Source: Eledone cirrhosa (lineage: Eukaryota). Taken from it: DNA of 64,000 bases. A program made the translations under genes and the position numbers. Of the stretch, positions 43,771 to 64,000 are shown in pieces (the first letter of the stretch is position 1; each line of letters opens with the position of its first letter). The notes beneath the pieces are model-generated. The model ran no database searches. It saw only the letters and a list, made by a program, of their open reading frames with translations, and had not been told where the DNA came from. The stretch lies in contig OZ024745.1 in the NCBI GenBank assembly GCA_964016885.1, forward strand, positions 106,702,001-106,766,000, given 5' to 3'.

Positions 43771-44218
43771 TGATAATATTGTAGGCGGCGAATTGGCAGA
43801 ATCGTTAAGACGTCGGACAGAATGCTTTGCGGCATTCGTCTCACCCCATTGCGCCCTCTGAATTCAAATCTAGCAGGGGTCAGTTTTGCCTTTCATCCTT
43901 TCGAGGTCGATAAAATAAAGTACCAGTTGTTTCTTCCTCTACAGAAAAATATAGGCTGTGTTCAGACCTGGAGAGGCTTGGGCTCCGCCAGGTTTAAAAG
44001 TGCCCTAGACACGCCGTATGACGGCGTCTCTACGACTCCATAAGGAGTTATGGGATCTTTTATGTCATAACATTACCAAGAAATACTGCTAGCGTATCAC
44101 TAATCTATGTGCTTGAATCTACGTAGGTAAATCTCTGTACCTATCATTACAAAAACAAACTAATTTCAATCATATTTTATACATGCTGCATCTATTTGTA
44201 ATCATCATTATACTGCAA

Positions 44219-46775: not shown

Positions 46776-47644
46776 TGGTCTCTCAATTCGGAGAAGTTGT
46801 TTGCTTTTGTGAAATTAAAATCTTTTTTTTTTTTTATATACTGCAAATTTCTGTATCAGGTTATTTAAATATAATTGTTTCTACTTTTGGCACAAGGCCA
46901 GCAATTACTCAGTGTATTACTGGTGCTTTATTTTATCGACCCCATAAGGATGAAAGGCTGATCATAACCAATGTCACAAGTTGCCGAAATTGTGTTACAA
47001 ATGTACCAATGAATTCAGTGACAATGTCACAGCCAATGACCCTGATTTGTGTGCTGACGTGTGTTACAGTATCACTGTCACGGGACATCTGTATGATTTT
47101 GAGCGTTCCATCAACTATTGATTGGTCAATACATCGATTAGAACTTGCCTTGTGTGTTCTTTGAGAAAACATTGAAAACTTTCCTCCCGCTCATCGTGAA
47201 GCAGAAGCATCTTACTCTTCCTTTGTAAGGAGAGTAAGGAGGCACACGCTTTTGTGACCCACCACTGCCAGATTTCTTTCTCTGAATGGAACTTTTTAAT
47301 TTCAAAGTTGTTTTCTGTGTAAATGATTGATAAGTAACTTTGAGAGTGAATGAGAAAATGTTTAAATCAAAATTGTGACAGTTTTCGCTCAGAAAGAAAT
47401 TTTTCTCTCCATATTCCGTAAATATGCATATTTGTTTAAAGTTATTAGATTTGTTCGTTACTTATTTCTGTGAAGTTGCCTTTATTTCCAATTTTTTTCT
47501 TTGAATGAGCAGATTTCTAAATTCTTAGAAGTTTCTTTGTAAGAGAATAAATTTTAAAATTCATTTTATGTAGTTGTTTTTTGAGAAAATACAGCACTAT
47601 ATGAAAACATCTCAACAGATTAGAAATCAATAATAATAATAATG

Positions 47645-47703
<59 letters not shown>

Positions 47704-47705
<2 letters not shown>

Positions 47706-48205
47706 TAGAGAAGTGGTATGAGCATAAGCCAGAGTCGGTGATAGAAAACGATCAGGTGAAGGTGCTGTGGGATTTTAGGATACAGACGGACAAGAAACTG
47801 GAACACAATAGACCTGACCTGGTGGTTTTGGACAAAGAAAAAAGATCGTGCCTGATTGTGGATGTGGCCTGCCCATTCGACACGAGAGTGCAAGAGAAGG
47901 AGAGGGAAAAAATTAACCGATACCAGGACTTAAAGTGGGAGGTAAAAAGGATTTGGAACTGCCATGAAGTCAAAGTGGTCCCGATTGTCATAGGCGCACT
48001 AGGTACTATCTCAAAAAGTTTCCAGGGATGGTTAAAGAAAATTGGCCCCTTCACGCTTTTTGGAACGCTTCAAAGGGCATGCTTGCTGGGAACAGCAAGA
48101 ACCCTCCGATACGTCCTGAATATCTGAGGCTGCAGGTAGTGGCTTGATATTCATTTCAACAAACTTTCCAGTTAACTAACATCAATGACTGAGACTCAAA
48201 GAACA
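47704..48205 (+). mobile_element. R4/Dong-type non-LTR retrotransposon 3' end (restriction-like endonuclease) in (TAA)n
   Basis: WYEHKP..LWDFRIQTD..NRPDLVV..IVDVACPFD..EKINRYQDL..VPIVIGALG; (TAA)n on both flanks. Confidence 0.9.
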
Positions 48206-54819: not shown

Positions 54820-55410
54820 ATGGATGTTGAAAACAGTAAATCACCTGGAACAGCGTTCGGCCGACTAAAAACAACAGCCACAATAATTCTCCAGGCATTC
54901 CTGCTCCTTTTACTTGTAATACTTGGACTACTATTAATATCTGTCCGCATTGTATCAACCCTCTTTCTAATATTTGTACGATTATTTGCAAGCATTGTAA
55001 AAGGAATACAGAAGCCTTTCGGATTTGTTTTACAAACCTTCAGAAGCGTACTAAACGCTATAACTTCACCTGTACAGTCGATAACAGTGTTGCTCAAACT
55101 TATTATAATGGGCTTTGTGATTGCTTTCGGATTCATTGTAGAAATGATCCGCATTGGAAACAGAATAATCATCACATCAATTAATTGTGTTTTCATCATA
55201 TTGAAAGTGGTACTAGGAACCTTGTTGGTAGCTCTAACTGTGTCAGGGTGCGCCCTATCTGTTATAGTCTATTACGTAACTGTTATTTATATGTTGTTTG
55301 TAAGGTTCTGTTGGTTTGCTATGTTTATTGTTCTTGTTAACTATGCAACAACTCCGCCTGAATTAGGTATTTGGGAACAGGTTTTCATGGCTGTGCTGTC
55401 GTTTTTCTGA
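54820..55410 (+). CDS. Putative intronless 196-aa multi-pass membrane protein of unknown family
   Basis: 591-bp open frame in non-repetitive AT-rich DNA, ATAATGG start context, consistent hydrophobic and amphipathic pattern, no TE motif. Confidence 0.55.
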   Translation: MDVENSKSPGTAFGRLKTTATIILQAFLLLLLVILGLLLISVRIVSTLFLIFVRLFASIVKGIQKPFGFVLQTFRSVLNAITSPVQSITVLLKLIIMGFVIAFGFIVEMIRIGNRIIITSINCVFIILKVVLGTLLVALTVSGCALSVIVYYVTVIYMLFVRFCWFAMFIVLVNYATTPPELGIWEQVFMAVLSFF

Positions 55411-56341: not shown

Positions 56342-56558
56342 AGTGAAGACGTGTGGCTGAGTGGTTAGAGAATTGGATTCGCAATCGTAAGGTTGTGAGT
56401 TCGTTTCCTGGACCAGATGATGCGTTATGTCCTTGAGCAAGACACTTTATTTCACGTTGCTCCTTCTACCTGGACTTGCGACCGATAGATAGTATTAGCA
56501 ATTGGAAAGACCAACGGAAACATTGTTCCCTCGGTCCGAATTGACGAAAGTCGATCGT
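56342..56558 (+). mobile_element. SINE family B, full length, in (TA)n
   Basis: A and B boxes, core and terminal hairpin. Confidence 0.9.
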
Positions 56559-56567
56559 CTTTTCTTC

Positions 56568-56624
<57 letters not shown>

Positions 56625-57630: not shown

Positions 57631-57634
<4 letters not shown>

Positions 57635-58353
57635 AAAACAAGATGAAATCGAAAATGCAACTGGAGTTTTATTTAAAAAAAATATATATTTATTTGGTTC
57701 CTTTACCAGTTTGGCAGTTCTTCTGCTTTTCAAAAGTAGAGTTGAGATGGAGGGTCTGTGGTTTTTCTTACATCTGGTTGGTCTCTGCGTGTTACTTGTT
57801 TTATATGGAAAAAAGTGGCTCAAAACGCCAAGTTTTTAGAGAAGTAATTTGATTGGTTGGTCAATAAGTATAATAAATTTCGCGCCAGTTCGCGTTACAA
57901 ATTCTTCAAACAAGGGGTGGGGCTCAGGTTGTATTTTCATATATGAGTGTTTGAATTTCTTTTTACTTACTCATATATGAAAAAACAACCTGAGCCCCAC
58001 CCCTTGTTTGAAGAACTTTGTAACGCGAACTGGCGCGAAATTTATTATAATTATTGACCAACCAATCAAATTACTTCTCTAAAAAGCTGGCGTTTCGAGC
58101 CTCTTTTTTCCATATAAAACAAGTAACATTCAAAGACCAATCAGATGTGAGAAAAACCACAGACCCTCCATCTCAACTCTACTTTTGAAAAGCAGAAGAA
58201 CTGCGAAACCGGTAAAGGAACCAAATAAATATATATATATTTTTTTAAATAAGACTCCAGTTGCATTTTCGATTTCATCTTTTTTTCTTTATACTTTCAC
58301 TCGTGTAGGACACCTCGGTTATTTTTCATTTTGTAAAAAAACCCTCACTTTCT
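57631..58353. mobile_element. Long palindromic insert (arms ~320 bp, ~20-bp spacer) with variant hammerhead and tail, in (TA)n
   Basis: 57631-57948 is the near reverse complement of 57969-58290; tail 58294-58353. Confidence 0.85.
58182..58217 (+). ncRNA. Variant minimal hammerhead (UUGAAAA core)
   Basis: CTT-TTGAAAA-GCAG(AAGAA)CTGC-GAAA-CCGG-TA-AAG then AATAAA; mirror copy has GAAA changed to CAAA. Confidence 0.6.
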
Positions 58354-58369
58354 AATATATATATATATA

Positions 58370-60290
58370 ACTTTGATAGGTTTCGGCCAGTATTGGCCCA
58401 GGCCATGTCTAACTTAATAGCTCCACTTGGAGAAGTCTTAGAAATCAGTGTTTACGGAGGCATATCCGGGTGTAGGAGGCTTATCCGGGATTTCTTGAAG
58501 GAATGTATCCAAAGACTTCTTGAACTTGATGGGGTCTGTTTCTGCTTTGATGTGTTTTGGTGTAATCTTAAAGAGTGCAGGGCCAATTGAGGTGAATTAA
58601 GTGTGCCGTATTGTTGTTATGAGATGCGAGTGAGATTTTTGTCGTGGGCGGATAGCACGGATGTACATTAATGGTGATGCCAACATCATTTGGGCAAAGC
58701 TGATGGAATATTTTCCACATCATGCAGATAAAGTAGCGCTCACGGCGAAATAAAGTGTCGCTCATGGCGAAATATAGAGAATAAAGGTTGATCTTTTCTA
58801 ATCGACTCCAATATCAAGGCCTGTCATGCCATTCATCTTTTTTTTAATTGACATTTGGGTGCTTCAACTTTTATGATATTTTGTTTCGTGCGTGGAGACC
58901 ACAGTGTACAACAGTATTCAAGGTGGGGTCGGGCAAAAGTGGAGTAGAGAAGGATAACAGTGTGGATATCTCTCGACTGGAAAGTTCTGAGAATCCAGGA
59001 ACATATTCTGCGGGGGCCATATCAACTTTGCTGTTTATATGAGTGGCCCAGCTTATGTTGTTGTCCACAATTACTCCCAGGTCTCTGATGTTATTGGATG
59101 CCACTAGAGTTTCACCAGAAGGAAGAGACTATGGTAGTTTCAGGGCATCCTTTTTTCCAAAGTGGATTAATTCAAACTTATCCTCATTCAACAGCATATT
59201 ATTCTTTTCTGCCCATTGGATAACAGCCAGTAGGTCTGACTGAAGTCAGTCGGGTCACCCACCTCATTGATGACCCTTTGGAGCTTGGAATCATCTGCGA
59301 AGATTCTTATGTTGCTGTGCTTGATGATGTCAGTAATGTCATTAATGTAGATGATGAAAAGAAGTGGGCCCAACACAGTGCTTTGTGGGACGCCACTGCT
59401 GACTTTGGCAGGGCTTGATTTTACTCCTTCGACTACAACATGGTGGGTTCTGTCTGTCAGGAAACATTTGATCTACTGTAGTAACCTTCCAGAGACACCA
59501 ACATGGGATAGATTTTTCAGTAGAATCTTATGATCAACCCTGTCAAAGCCTTGTTGAAATCAAGGTAGATGACATCAGTGTTGGAGCCCTCTCCCAAGGC
59601 TCTCAAAACATCGTCAAAGTGATTTAGGAGCTGCGTTAGGCAGTCCCTTTCATTATGGAACCCATGCTGGTTGGAGTTCAGCAGGCCGTTGCTTTCAAGA
59701 AAGTGGGTTATTCGTGATCTCACCACCCTCTCAAATACCTTGATAATATGAGAGGTGAGTGAGATCGGACGGTAGTTCACTGCAAGGGACTTATTTCCCT
59801 TTTTGAAGACTGGGCCAACGGACTGGAACAGAAAGTTTTCAGGAATATAGCCAGTGTCCAGTGAGTTCCTCCACAGATTAGCAAGAGGAGATGCAAGTTG
59901 GTGTCGACATACCTTCAGGACACACGCAGGGAACCTGTCGGGGCCTACTGCTGAATTGTGTTTAATTTCGTTTATTGCCGCTAAGACATCAGTGGCGCCA
60001 AACGTTATGTCTGATATAGTGTGTTGGGATTAACATCACTGATACAGCCCAGATCGGCCATATCATGATTGCTGAAAACAGACCAGTATTGTTTCTGCAG
60101 TATCTCGCCCATGGTTTTGGCATTGTCTTGGAGTGTGCTATTTTCATCAACTAGAGGGCCAACAGTGGAGACGGTGACCTTGTATTTTTTAGCAAATGAA
60201 ATGAACCCTTTCGGGTTGAGTTTGATTTTCTCAATGGCCCACCTCTCTTCAGCTTTTCTCTGGTTATTGATGATGGTCATCATGCATTGC
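58370..60290 (-). mobile_element. CR1-group LINE RT pseudogene
   Basis: NYRPISLTSHIIKVFE, NQHGF, YLDFNKA, SGVPQ.TVLGPLLFIIYINDI, FADD, RDLGV; many frameshifts. Confidence 0.92.
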
Positions 60291-60770: not shown

Positions 60771-60962
60771 ATAGGAAAAGTATGACCCCGACGGCAGAGC
60801 TCAAGCCGTTTCGACGACTATTTCTGTCCAGAAATAGCCGTCGAAACGCCTTGAGCTCTTCCGTCGGGGTCATACTTTTTCCTATTTCCCACTCTACTAC
60901 CCTATGTATTGAGTACTCTGGTGCATTATGATCCATCTGGTTACTTACCACAATTCCTTTGT
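60771..60962. mobile_element. Palindromic insert (60771-60885, 2-nt spacer) plus tail, in (TA)n
   Basis: Arms ~56 bp; tail carries ACTC-N16-GAGTACT. Confidence 0.75.
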
Positions 60963-61153: not shown

Positions 61154-61274
61154 TATATACATATTAAAACAAACCCTAAGGCCTTCTTTAAATTTGCAAA
61201 AGACACTGCCTCGGTACACTGCAAGATTGGACCACTCTACCATTAACCGAGAATCCCCAAGACATATATATATA

Positions 61275-61666
61275 TACATTCTTAGCTAGTATGATGACAA
61301 GTAAGTATGTTTAAAAACAGCGAGCAAGTTTGAAATTAGAAAATAGAAGCTTTCACCGTATTTTTTTTACTAAAGAAATGTTAGCCTGATAGTGGGGTTT
61401 AGAACCCTCAGAGAAATACTTGCTAAGAATGTAGCTTCTAATTTGAATTGAAGGAGATTGGTGATGTGTTGGTGTAATGGTAGCACAGTGGTCTGGATAA
61501 CCAATGATGTGGGTTCGACTCCCATGTACGTAAATGCTCATCTTTTTCCATTTCTCTGAGGGTTCTAAACCCCACTATCAGGCTAAAATTTCTTTAGTCA
61601 AAAAATGCGGTGAAAGCTTCTATTTTCTAATTTGAAACTTGCTCGCTGTTTCAAAACATACTTACT
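61275..61666. mobile_element. Inverted-repeat insert (arms 61300-61417 and 61550-61666) enclosing a tRNA-like segment
   Basis: A-box TGGTGTAATGG and B-box GGTTCGACTCC at about 61470-61522; TA repeats on both flanks. Confidence 0.75.
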
Positions 61667-61952
61667 ATATATATATATGTATAATAAAATATATATTTTG
61701 ATTATGAGAATATTTTTCATTTATTAATATTTTGAATAATACATATATATATATATACATAATATATATATAACTACAAAGTAATGACGAGTAAAAACTT
61801 GCCTGGGGAACACTGCTCTAACACCGGCTAGAGTTATCTCCCTTGACCTACTGCAAAATCAATAGATGTTTTTTACGAAGAATGAACTGTGATGTGAACT
61901 TATCTCTAAAACCCATTCTGGGTCATGTAAGGAGCGCTTTTTAGTTTTTTAT

Positions 61953-61992
61953 GCCCTTGAGAAGCCCATTCGGGCGAAACGTACGTAGGTGC
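61953..61992 (+). ncRNA. Variant minimal hammerhead (UUGAGAA core)
   Basis: GCCC-TTGAGAA-GCCC(ATTC)GGGC-GAAA-CGTACG-TA-GG, then AATAAA about 10 nt later; helix I short. Confidence 0.65.
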
Positions 61993-63186
61993 TGTTTTAA
62001 ATAAACATGTTTTAACGGTTTGTTCTCCTTTATTTACTTCTCCACACACACACACACATATATATATATATACATATATGTATATAAAAACAATTTAGTA
62101 TACATGTACATTTTATTGTATTAATAACATAAATTATATTGAAATAACAAAGGTATCATTGTTTATAAATGTTCAAAATGCTTGCCATTAGCAATTTGAT
62201 CTGGGTTAGCTTCCGCTAACTAAAAACTAAAAGAACCTTCGTGTTTGCTATACATCTGTTAGAAATATCAGCCACAGGTCCAACAGATCAGGCTCGGCTG
62301 TCTTTAAAATTGAAAAATACATTACAACCAAGAATGGGCTCCTATGTGGGCCTTCGTCAGGTTATAATTAATGGTAAAATGACTCTCAAATTACACTACG
62401 ATTAAGATAATATACTGAAAAATATGGGTCTCAGATTATTGCGTTATGTACCTGGAAAAGGGACGGGTTGATCTTAGCTGATGTCCCTTTCACCATATGT
62501 ATGTTCCATAATATATTATGCTAGGCTGGAGCCAAATAACAGCAATTAAAACGCATGTATGCTGTTAATGAATATATTAGCAGTAACAGCTAAAGTTTCA
62601 AATAAATCAAAAACTATCGTATTCATGAAATGATAGCATATCACTGCTCATAGCTTAATCAGAGCTTGCCTAAACTTAACCAACAACAGCTATGCGTATT
62701 CTGAGCGTGTGATGAATCCTCTAAGCCAGGGATACTTAACGCTTCATCTCTCATATACACCAACCACTTGTATTTCACTAAATACCTCCTTACATTCTTG
62801 CTGAAATGTATACTTCATAAATGCTAGCCCATTTCCCTGCTTGGTCGTTATCTTTTAGAGTCGACTCTATAAGTTTGATCATTTTTATAAAGAATTTTTA
62901 TCATATTTCCTTATCTGTTATGCTTGATTTGGAACATTAGCTATCCTAAATCCATGAATATATTAATGTTTTAAGGCATTCATTGTGTTCGATAAGCAGA
63001 AGCGCGAAAATTTAAGATACAGAGGATTAAAACATTAGCAAGGATTAAAGAAAATGTCGTATGTATGTATGTATGGTGGGGGGAGGGGTGTCTACACGTG
63101 TTGTGTGTGTGGAAATATATTTTCTTATACCACTATCAATAAATCCATATTTATAGAGTGTTTGTTTCTATTATTTATGCAAAAAA

Positions 63187-64000
63187 GGCGGTGGATTGGC
63201 AGTATTGGTAGAGCATCGGACAACATACTTTCAGTCATGTAGTTTCGGTCCTTTACGGTTGGAGTTCAAATCCCATCGATGTTAGCTTTGCCTTTCATCC
63301 TTATGGAGTCGATGAAATAAAGTACCAGTCATGCACTGGGGTCGATTTAATCGACTTTCCCCTCCCCAAAATTGATGGACTTGAGCCTAAATCAGAAACC
63401 ATTATTTTGGCAGTGGATTGGCAGTATCGGTAGAGGGTCGGACGCCATGCTTTCCAGCATAGTTACGTCCCTTTACGATCTGAGTTCAAATCCCGCCGAG
63501 GTTGACTTTGCCTTTCATCCTTACGGGGTCGATAAAATAAAGTACCAGTAATGCACTGGGTAATTGCTGGCCTTTTGCCTAAAGTAGAAACAATTATTTT
63601 GGCAGTATCGGTAGAAGGTCGGACGCCATGCTTTGATGCATAGAGTTACGCCCCTTTCAATTCTGAGTTCAAATCTCACCGAGGTTAACTTTGCCTTTCA
63701 TCCTTACGGGGTCGATAAAATGAAGTACCCGTAATGTACTGGATAATTGCTGGCCTTGTGCCAAAAGTAGAAACAATTATTTATACAAAAAAAAAAAAAG
63801 AGGTAGATTGACAGTATCGGTTGGGGGTAGGACAACATAGTTTGAGGCATGTAGTTATGACCCTTTAGGGTCTGAGTTCAAATCCTGCCGAGGTTAGCTT
63901 TGCATTTCATCATTACGAGGTTGATAAAATGAAGTACCAGTAACTCACTTCGGTCGATTTAATTGACTTTCCCCATCCAGTCAAATTGCTGGCCTTGTGA
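63187..64000 (+). mobile_element. Head-to-tail cluster of four SINE family A copies
   Basis: Starts at about 63187, 63409, 63599 and 63801. Confidence 0.9.

Follow-up and report, generated by a model that had tools for sequence, protein, structure and literature searches.

In the Naiads and other EN+ Penelope-like elements (PLEs), an inverted, 5'-truncated copy adjoins the 5' end of the element, a tail of 30-40 bp is present, often at one end only, and the (TA)n targets leave no discernible target-site duplication (TSD) (Craig et al. 2021, PMC8557442). The octopus Naiads and Hydra-1_Obim are tabulated as (TA)n-targeting in the supplement of that paper, which also describes the cephalopod Naiads as long-inactive remnants, a point that counts against the PLE reading offered below. 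In vitro, PLE protein cuts both strands of AT-rich DNA and starts reverse transcription at two positions within the RNA; the tail corresponds to the sequence that separates them, and hammerhead cleavage is dispensable (Frangieh et al. 2024, PMC11167929). Mobilisation in trans has also been documented, along with pLTRs in inverted orientation and a tail of 31 bp (PMC3846280). A second group, the animal non-LTR retrozymes, consists of non-coding units of 170-400 nt that are proposed to depend on PLEs and have a type I hammerhead as their defining feature (Cervera and de la Pena 2020, PMC7229834; Li et al. 2026, 10.64898/2026.07.22.740005; PMC4209133). Short non-autonomous Penelope elements are mentioned without detail in butterflies (PMC6685494).

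The locus described here lies toward the end of a 64-kb window, that is, the whole 64,000-nt stretch of Eledone cirrhosa DNA that was analysed. It resembles the Naiad and Hydra elements in its inverted 5'-truncated copy, its tail at one end and its (TA)n target with indiscernible TSD; the Naiads too are missing the canonical hammerhead, and both the Naiad and Hydra clades are present in Octopus. Unlike them it has no ORF, its tail is 25 nt rather than 30-40, and it carries a tRNA-like gene. With the retrozymes it shares a non-coding unit in the range of 170-400 nt, an implied head-to-tail permutation and a proposed PLE dependence, but the type I hammerhead is absent here, and the available text of the retrozyme accounts mentions no tRNA module. 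We put at about 0.66 the probability that the locus is an aged copy of a high-copy, non-coding, ribozyme-less, tRNA-bearing repeat of 258 nt, likely mobilised in trans by a TA-targeting PLE of the Naiad/Hydra type.

Anatomy of the element

The element is a non-coding palindrome of about 390 bases without an ORF (Table 1), and its fold as a whole reaches z = -23, with none of 100 shuffles equally stable. The arms (61300-61417 and 61550-61666) are complementary in 111 of 118 columns (94%), and both ARAGORN and Rfam call a tRNA between them; inverted arms around a spacer with A and B boxes, as the first-pass annotation had described, are thus confirmed. Its observation that the left tail repeats the start of the spacer also holds: the reverse complement of 61275-61292 agrees with 61416-61433 at 17 of 18 positions, the best match in 3000 dinucleotide shuffles of the spacer is at most 14 of 18, and the 64-kb window holds no further site with three or fewer mismatches. 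Read on the minus strand, the left half runs from the arm through a 7-nt link into 18 nt like 61416-61433. Because the one-sided tail repeats the spacer start in reverse, a head-to-tail unit is implied, and the right half (61416-61666, 251 nt) together with the link sets its length at 258 nt, close to the earlier estimate of about 255 nt.

Table 1. Features of the element and its target tracts (positions in the 64-kb window)
Feature	Position	Strand	Basis
Left (TA)n target tract	61264..61276		Sequence; final TA common to the tract and the tail end
One-sided tail, 25 nt (7-nt link and first 16-18 nt of the next unit)	61275..61299	-	17/18 match to 61416-61433; depth at 61297
Left arm, inverted and 5'-truncated copy of the unit's 3' part	61300..61417	-	111/118 against the right arm
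2-nt microhomology (AT) at the fold-back junction	61416..61417		AT common to the left arm and the unit sequence in the tail
Leader, 47 nt, 5' of the tRNA	61416..61462	+	Family sequence; 5 of 16 listed contig pieces start at 61415-61418
tRNA-like cloverleaf, GGA at the anticodon position	61463..61533	+	Rfam 39.5 bits, ARAGORN, stem pairs
T5 run, Pol III terminator-like	61543..61547	+	Starts 10 nt past the tRNA; terminator role presumed
Most abundant family segment, containing a 5-bp hairpin (61560-61572)	61533..61590	+	Depth peak in four of four runs; fold
Right arm, the unit's 3' part, tailless end in (TA)n	61550..61666	+	Arm complementarity
3' half of a minimal-hammerhead-like core, without the 5' half	61611..61619	+	Chance level
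Right (TA)n target tract	61666..61678		Sequence

No TA tract separates the two halves, which meet at the common AT at 61416-61417. As both ends of the element run into (TA)n, a TSD is indiscernible rather than absent, which corrects the earlier statement that none is visible. No poly(A) or simple-repeat tail was seen on the element, and the window contains no second copy of it. Two scans of both strands of the element agree with the first reading that no canonical hammerhead is visible. Three candidates for structured RNA were set aside: the half hammerhead core in the right arm is a chance motif (6 in the window against 5.94 in shuffles), an antisense three-way look-alike at 61345-61425 folds no better than shuffles, and Rfam miRNA matches near the locus fall below the gathering score and reflect hairpins or TA repeats.

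The repeat family and its tRNA-like module

Five of the eight listed public runs, from two studies, contain part of the stretch, and four of these were aligned at 80% likeness to a reference of 61200-61600, of which 61290-61600 was covered. X5 (share 0.06) was left aside, and no run is recorded as RNA, which has no bearing on expression. Two consist of contigs (X1, and X4 from another organism) and two of RAD reads (X6 and X7). The family was matched by 3440 of 16.5 M contigs in X1, 937 of 17.6 M contigs in X4, 2978 of 12.5 M reads in X6 and 2536 of 12.8 M reads in X7; a single-copy locus, an outcome weighed in the first-pass annotation, is ruled out by these 937-3440 contigs and roughly 2500-3000 reads per run. 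The largest likeness class is 90-95% in each run, tied in X4 with the class under 90%. Given even RAD sampling and a genome of 2.8 Gb, the size of the O. vulgaris assembly (PMC13282606), the depth corresponds to about 500 to 3000 copy-equivalents; given the bias of RAD sampling, this figure indicates no more than the order of magnitude. A metagenome scan with a 27-nt pattern returned 0 loci. The structural variants described below are those among the 15 of 119 joints, 24 of 676 loose ends and 16 of 4712 pieces that were listed.

Some of the arm ends, about half of them in the RAD runs, continue into the tail, which thus belongs to the family sequence. At 61297, a position beyond the clip point of a TA-flanked end, the depth relative to 61313 is 148/325 in X6 and 161/311 in X7 (46-52%), whereas in the contigs only 20% and 23% of the arm-end depth continues into the tail. 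The fold-back junction of this copy is not a fixed feature either: none of the 16 listed pieces bridges 61417/61418, and of the five that start at 61415-61418, four carry 19-394 extra letters that do not fit the arm. A different fold-back joint, 61417→61533, is present in both X1 and X4, and 18 of the 24 X4 letters within it read as the reverse complement of the spacer end, so that deletion of the present palindrome cannot have made them. Another fold-back, at 61523/61527, recurs in all four runs, with four starts in each RAD run, though it could be a RAD ligation artefact as it lies on a CATG site. A third, at 61526/61546, is represented by 46 and 56 reads in X6 and X7, with one start only, and the joints 61401→61558 and 61361→61537 fit fold-back or internal deletion alike. 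Opposite-strand joints with one side in the left arm, at 61342, 61365, 61367, 61371, 61408 and 61416 were dropped as fold-back evidence, since ordinary copies yield them on a partly redundant reference.

The 5' extent of the copies differs as well. Depth over the leader in X1 is 16-20k against 128-175k over 61480-61521, and the step falls at the 5' boundary of the tRNA, from 20k (61438-61451) to 128k (61480-61493) in X1 and from 1.2k to 3.3k in X4; many other copies may start near the tRNA. In X7, 114 reads have AT-rich loose letters before 61460 (agreement 0.64). Across X1 and X4 the depth rises from the leader through the tRNA to 61536-61577 and is lower on the distal arm, where subfamilies differ. 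Truncation next to target-like sequence is seen in eight X1 contigs (agreement 0.95), in which the arm is cut at about 61383 and followed by (TA)n; the TA-containing loose ends in X1 are two, of 7 and 8 contigs. In X6 and X7 the depth also falls, and loose ends occur, at 61334/61337, at 61440 and at 61590; these positions were rejected as element boundaries, as they lie on AATT sites and are restriction artefacts. Among the joints and pieces listed, both the fold-back point and the 5' truncation vary from copy to copy; no direct tandem and no joint from the unit's end to its start occurs among them, over the 61290-61600 covered.

The tRNA-like module is called by ARAGORN at 61462-61534 with anticodon GGA, and by Rfam (RF00005) at 61463-61533 with 39.5 bits against a gathering score of 29, the sole gathering-level Rfam match in the 64 kb. 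It includes segments that, on the usual consensus, we take to be the A box (61470-61480) and the B box (61513-61521). In this copy 19 of the 21 stem pairs of the cloverleaf are standard, and its variable arm is short. At the level of the family the acceptor stem is complete and all four tRNA stems are kept: 96% of the RAD reads have at 61532 a letter that completes the first acceptor pair, and at 61468, 61483 and 61488 there are variants that restore Watson-Crick pairing where this copy has a wobble or a mismatch. Positions 61490 and 61502 shift together in X4 (30% each, unphased), which we infer to be compensation. The anticodon-loop positions 61497-61498 vary in about 29% of the X4 depth, and a common family variant at 61567 falls in the loop of the 61560-61572 hairpin. 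This copy differs from the rest of the family at six positions or more and is therefore aged.

Decoding by this module is unlikely, and it probably serves the transcription or processing of the unit RNA instead. A run of T is a terminator-like signal for Pol III, and besides the T5 run the unit has a T4 run at 61623-61626. As T5 follows an internal and complete tRNA, transcription by Pol III would mostly end short of the arm and yield an RNA of pre-tRNA size; both runs argue against efficient Pol III read-through, and a full-length template would need either such read-through or Pol II. The first-pass annotation had described a Pol III head and a candidate SINE. The tRNA is not the 5' end of the unit, as 47 nt (61416-61462) come before it, and the SINE label fits poorly even if the boxes are used, because the tRNA is internal and complete and T5 comes next.

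Proposed mobilisation, alternative explanations and neighbouring repeats

What is observed is the anatomy, the high copy number, the partial tail and the variable fold-back; how the enzymes acted, that the template was a tandem or a circle, and what the tRNA does are inferred. The tail and the 47-nt leader imply that the template was longer than one unit, or a circle. An RNA of this kind, arising by read-through of a head-to-tail master locus or as a circle, would be bound by the PLE protein, whose GIY-YIG nuclease would nick both strands of a (TA)n tract. Reverse transcription would then begin at two internal points of the RNA, separated by 25 nt, so that one end carries a tail and the other does not. 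The resulting cDNAs of 251 and 143 nt, primed from opposite target strands, would be joined head-to-head through the 2-nt microhomology to produce the palindrome. At this one locus the right half falls 7 nt short of a complete unit, and a circular template would account for the difference. A small AC-rich stem-loop over the presumed start sites is not distinguished from shuffled sequence (z -1.1, 34 of 200 shuffles as good). Of the idea originally put forward, a non-autonomous tRNA-derived element that uses PLE machinery, the core is favoured by the high copy number, the partial tail, the varying fold-back and the PLE-signature layout; the label of a SINE with a head is weakened.

A further suggestion, which we consider rather unlikely, is that in these octopod ribozyme-less retrozymes the tRNA mimic replaces the hammerhead, acting both as a Pol III promoter and as an RNase P/Z site at which multimers would be cut into units. 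The retention of the four stems while the anticodon loop drifts, and the depth step at the 5' boundary of the tRNA, fit this suggestion.

A MITE or foldback DNA transposon targeting TA, with 117-bp TIRs and a captured tRNA gene or SINE, is an alternative that we regard as improbable. The tail would then be a subterminal asymmetry and the variants deletion products, and the long TIR-like arms with their TA flanks, together with the joints 61401→61558 and 61361→61537, which are compatible with internal deletions, can be read in this way. Many active TIR families and MITEs are present in the O. vulgaris annotation (PMC13282606), and microsatellite-associated MITEs have been reported in plants (PMC8449440). 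However, the ends are asymmetric, none of the 16 listed pieces crosses the junction, an arm that extends into the spacer (61417→61533, 61523/61527) cannot come from deletion, and the repetition of the spacer start by the tail (17/18) is left unexplained. The fixed-TIR MITE named as a competing outcome in the first-pass annotation is accordingly disfavoured by the asymmetric ends and the other fold-back points among the listed joints.

It is also quite unlikely that the locus represents an ordinary LINE-dependent tRNA SINE, inserted twice head-to-head in a TA tract or rearranged there by a later fold-back. Such an origin would be in keeping with a tRNA bearing A and B boxes, with the climb in depth across its 5' boundary in X1 and X4 and the AT-rich loose letters before 61460 in X7, and with a window that has many LINE RT fragments and further tRNA SINEs. 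Against it, there is no TA spacer between the halves, and the family sequence begins 47 nt before the tRNA; T5 comes directly past the tRNA, no poly(A) or simple-repeat tail is present, and the terminus is redundant with the spacer start; and fold-backs recur in other copies and in other families. The element has no match to the LINE fragments in the window. The layout of DIRS-type (tyrosine-recombinase) elements comprises terminal repeats in inverted orientation, an extension at the 3' end and, next to the right repeat, an internal region of complementarity. Here the final 18 nt of the extension can pair with 61416-61433, which adjoins an arm. A non-autonomous element of this type read on the minus strand is nevertheless hardly tenable and already largely excluded, since the sequence beyond 61433 lacks the second half, which should pair with the other terminus, and the structure varies among copies.

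Comparison of the 3' end with autonomous PLE ends, as the first-pass annotation had proposed, gave no match in the published Naiad/Chlamys/Hydra consensus set: 11 short motifs of the element (and 6 of neighbouring repeats) have 0 matches in that supplement, where line breaks may mask some, and by eye the element bears no convincing resemblance to Naiad_Obim, Naiad_Ovul or Hydra-1_Obim at their 3' ends (Naiad_Omin is incomplete, and the Esco and Adux ends were compared in part). A Naiad 3'-end motif is absent from the 64-kb window, and Pfam finds no GIY-YIG family among its 118 ORFs; the three RVT_1 matches are LINE-like by eye.

TA tracts, SINEs and LINE fragments abound in the window. At 38024-38231 there is a TA-flanked fold-back with a type I hammerhead and a one-sided extension of about 68 nt, which also has a partial copy (37627-37716). 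Its hammerheads, at 37653 (+) and 38086 (-), have the form CTGAnGAT...TGAA that is tabulated for Hydra PLEs, and it is likely to be a PLE 3' end. A hairpin with 51-bp arms and a one-sided extension of about 78 nt lies between TA tracts at 60773-60962. The two extensions have an exact 10-mer in common, but the motif common to these tails carries little weight (3 occurrences at one mismatch, against 3.37 expected). These two fold-backs make PLE-style insertion independently visible in this genome.

Other repeats are recorded here as separate observations. At 61780-62040 a minimal-hammerhead-like variant (about 61955-61990) is followed by AATAAA and (CA)n, and looks like another PLE end. A TA-associated family (32252-32460, 32724-33000, 35741-35915, 37295-37458) has a hammerhead-like CTGATGA...GAAA with a long stem II (35846 and 32830, both minus strand). 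A palindrome of about 650 bp (57632-58289, 91%) has a 20-nt loop and a TA tract on the left only. A second tRNA-headed SINE family (56342-56570, 30052-30274, 28438-28666, 1673-1885; 89% mean column identity) ends at or near TA tracts in all four copies, three of which start exactly at the head; its 3' part has GAAAC and then a TTGACGA core, in the order of published Naiad ends, and it is possibly another PLE-linked SINE. An abundant tRNA-derived SINE of about 190 nt occurs as a four-copy run at the window end (63181-63999) and at about 15 other sites, and its central part presumably resembles the Deu/Nin domain. LINE remnants (26351-27940 -, 59191-60029 -, 47624-48127 +) comprise a 529-aa RT ORF (RVT_1, E 5e-31), RT fragments and, flanked by (AAT)n tracts, an ORF that has a restriction-like nuclease motif and that we take to be R4/Dong-like. 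There are two homogeneous minisatellites, at 11797-14366 (24 x 107 nt, 97%) and 41150-43775 (58 x 45 nt, 95%). A hydrophobic, single-exon ORF of 196 aa (54820-55407 +) matches no Pfam family; its relatives are 2 among 1120 candidates, an uncharacterised Octopus bimaculoides protein at 68% identity and another at 64%, the former being the only one with a named species and, as a single protein, in keeping with an octopod host; an atlas search gave no usable match.

Relation to known systems

SINEs are defined as dependants of LINEs, and TRIMp3 as dependants of LTR elements; a tRNA-bearing PLE dependant, if true, would fill a third slot, the pairing of a tRNA-like gene with PLE mobilisation being uncommon. 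A 258-nt unit with end points 25 nt apart might also offer a minimal cis-substrate for how PLE tails and fold-backs form, a question that the literature calls unresolved. Copies such as this one would be labelled as MITEs or unclassified SINEs and would give false tRNA calls in octopus genomes. The O. vulgaris annotation contains 893 unclassified recently active SINE families (PMC13282606), and the octopod family may be among them. The openly available full texts covered give no account of a PLE dependant that bears a tRNA, and the family may already be in Repbase or Dfam under another label.

Three described systems approach this arrangement from different sides. In the SINE-like SM-alpha/Sj-alpha repeats of schistosomes a Pol III promoter lies inside a tandem unit, and single copies rely on an upstream copy; they differ in having an active hammerhead, and the available text does not describe (TA)n fold-back and tail insertions for them (PMC6765202). 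The non-autonomous Chlamys elements (MRC1) likewise depend on PLEs and do not code for protein, have pLTRs, occur as head-to-tail copies and come from a clade that lacks canonical hammerheads, but they belong to green algae, have 3' sequence in common with their autonomous partner, and come with no mention of a tRNA module in the accessible part of the account (PMC8557442). The TRIMp3 elements Cassandra, Helenus and Ajax carry a Pol III promoter like that of a small-RNA gene within the terminal repeat and not at the 5' end; they are, however, LTR elements with a PBS, a PPT and a TSD of 4-5 bp, in which the tRNA or 5S fold is reported to be lost, whereas the cloverleaf is complete here (Kojima 2024, PMC10886601). 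The element stands closer to a ribozyme-less retrozyme, or to a PLE counterpart of Cassandra and Helenus, than to a SINE composed of head, body and tail.
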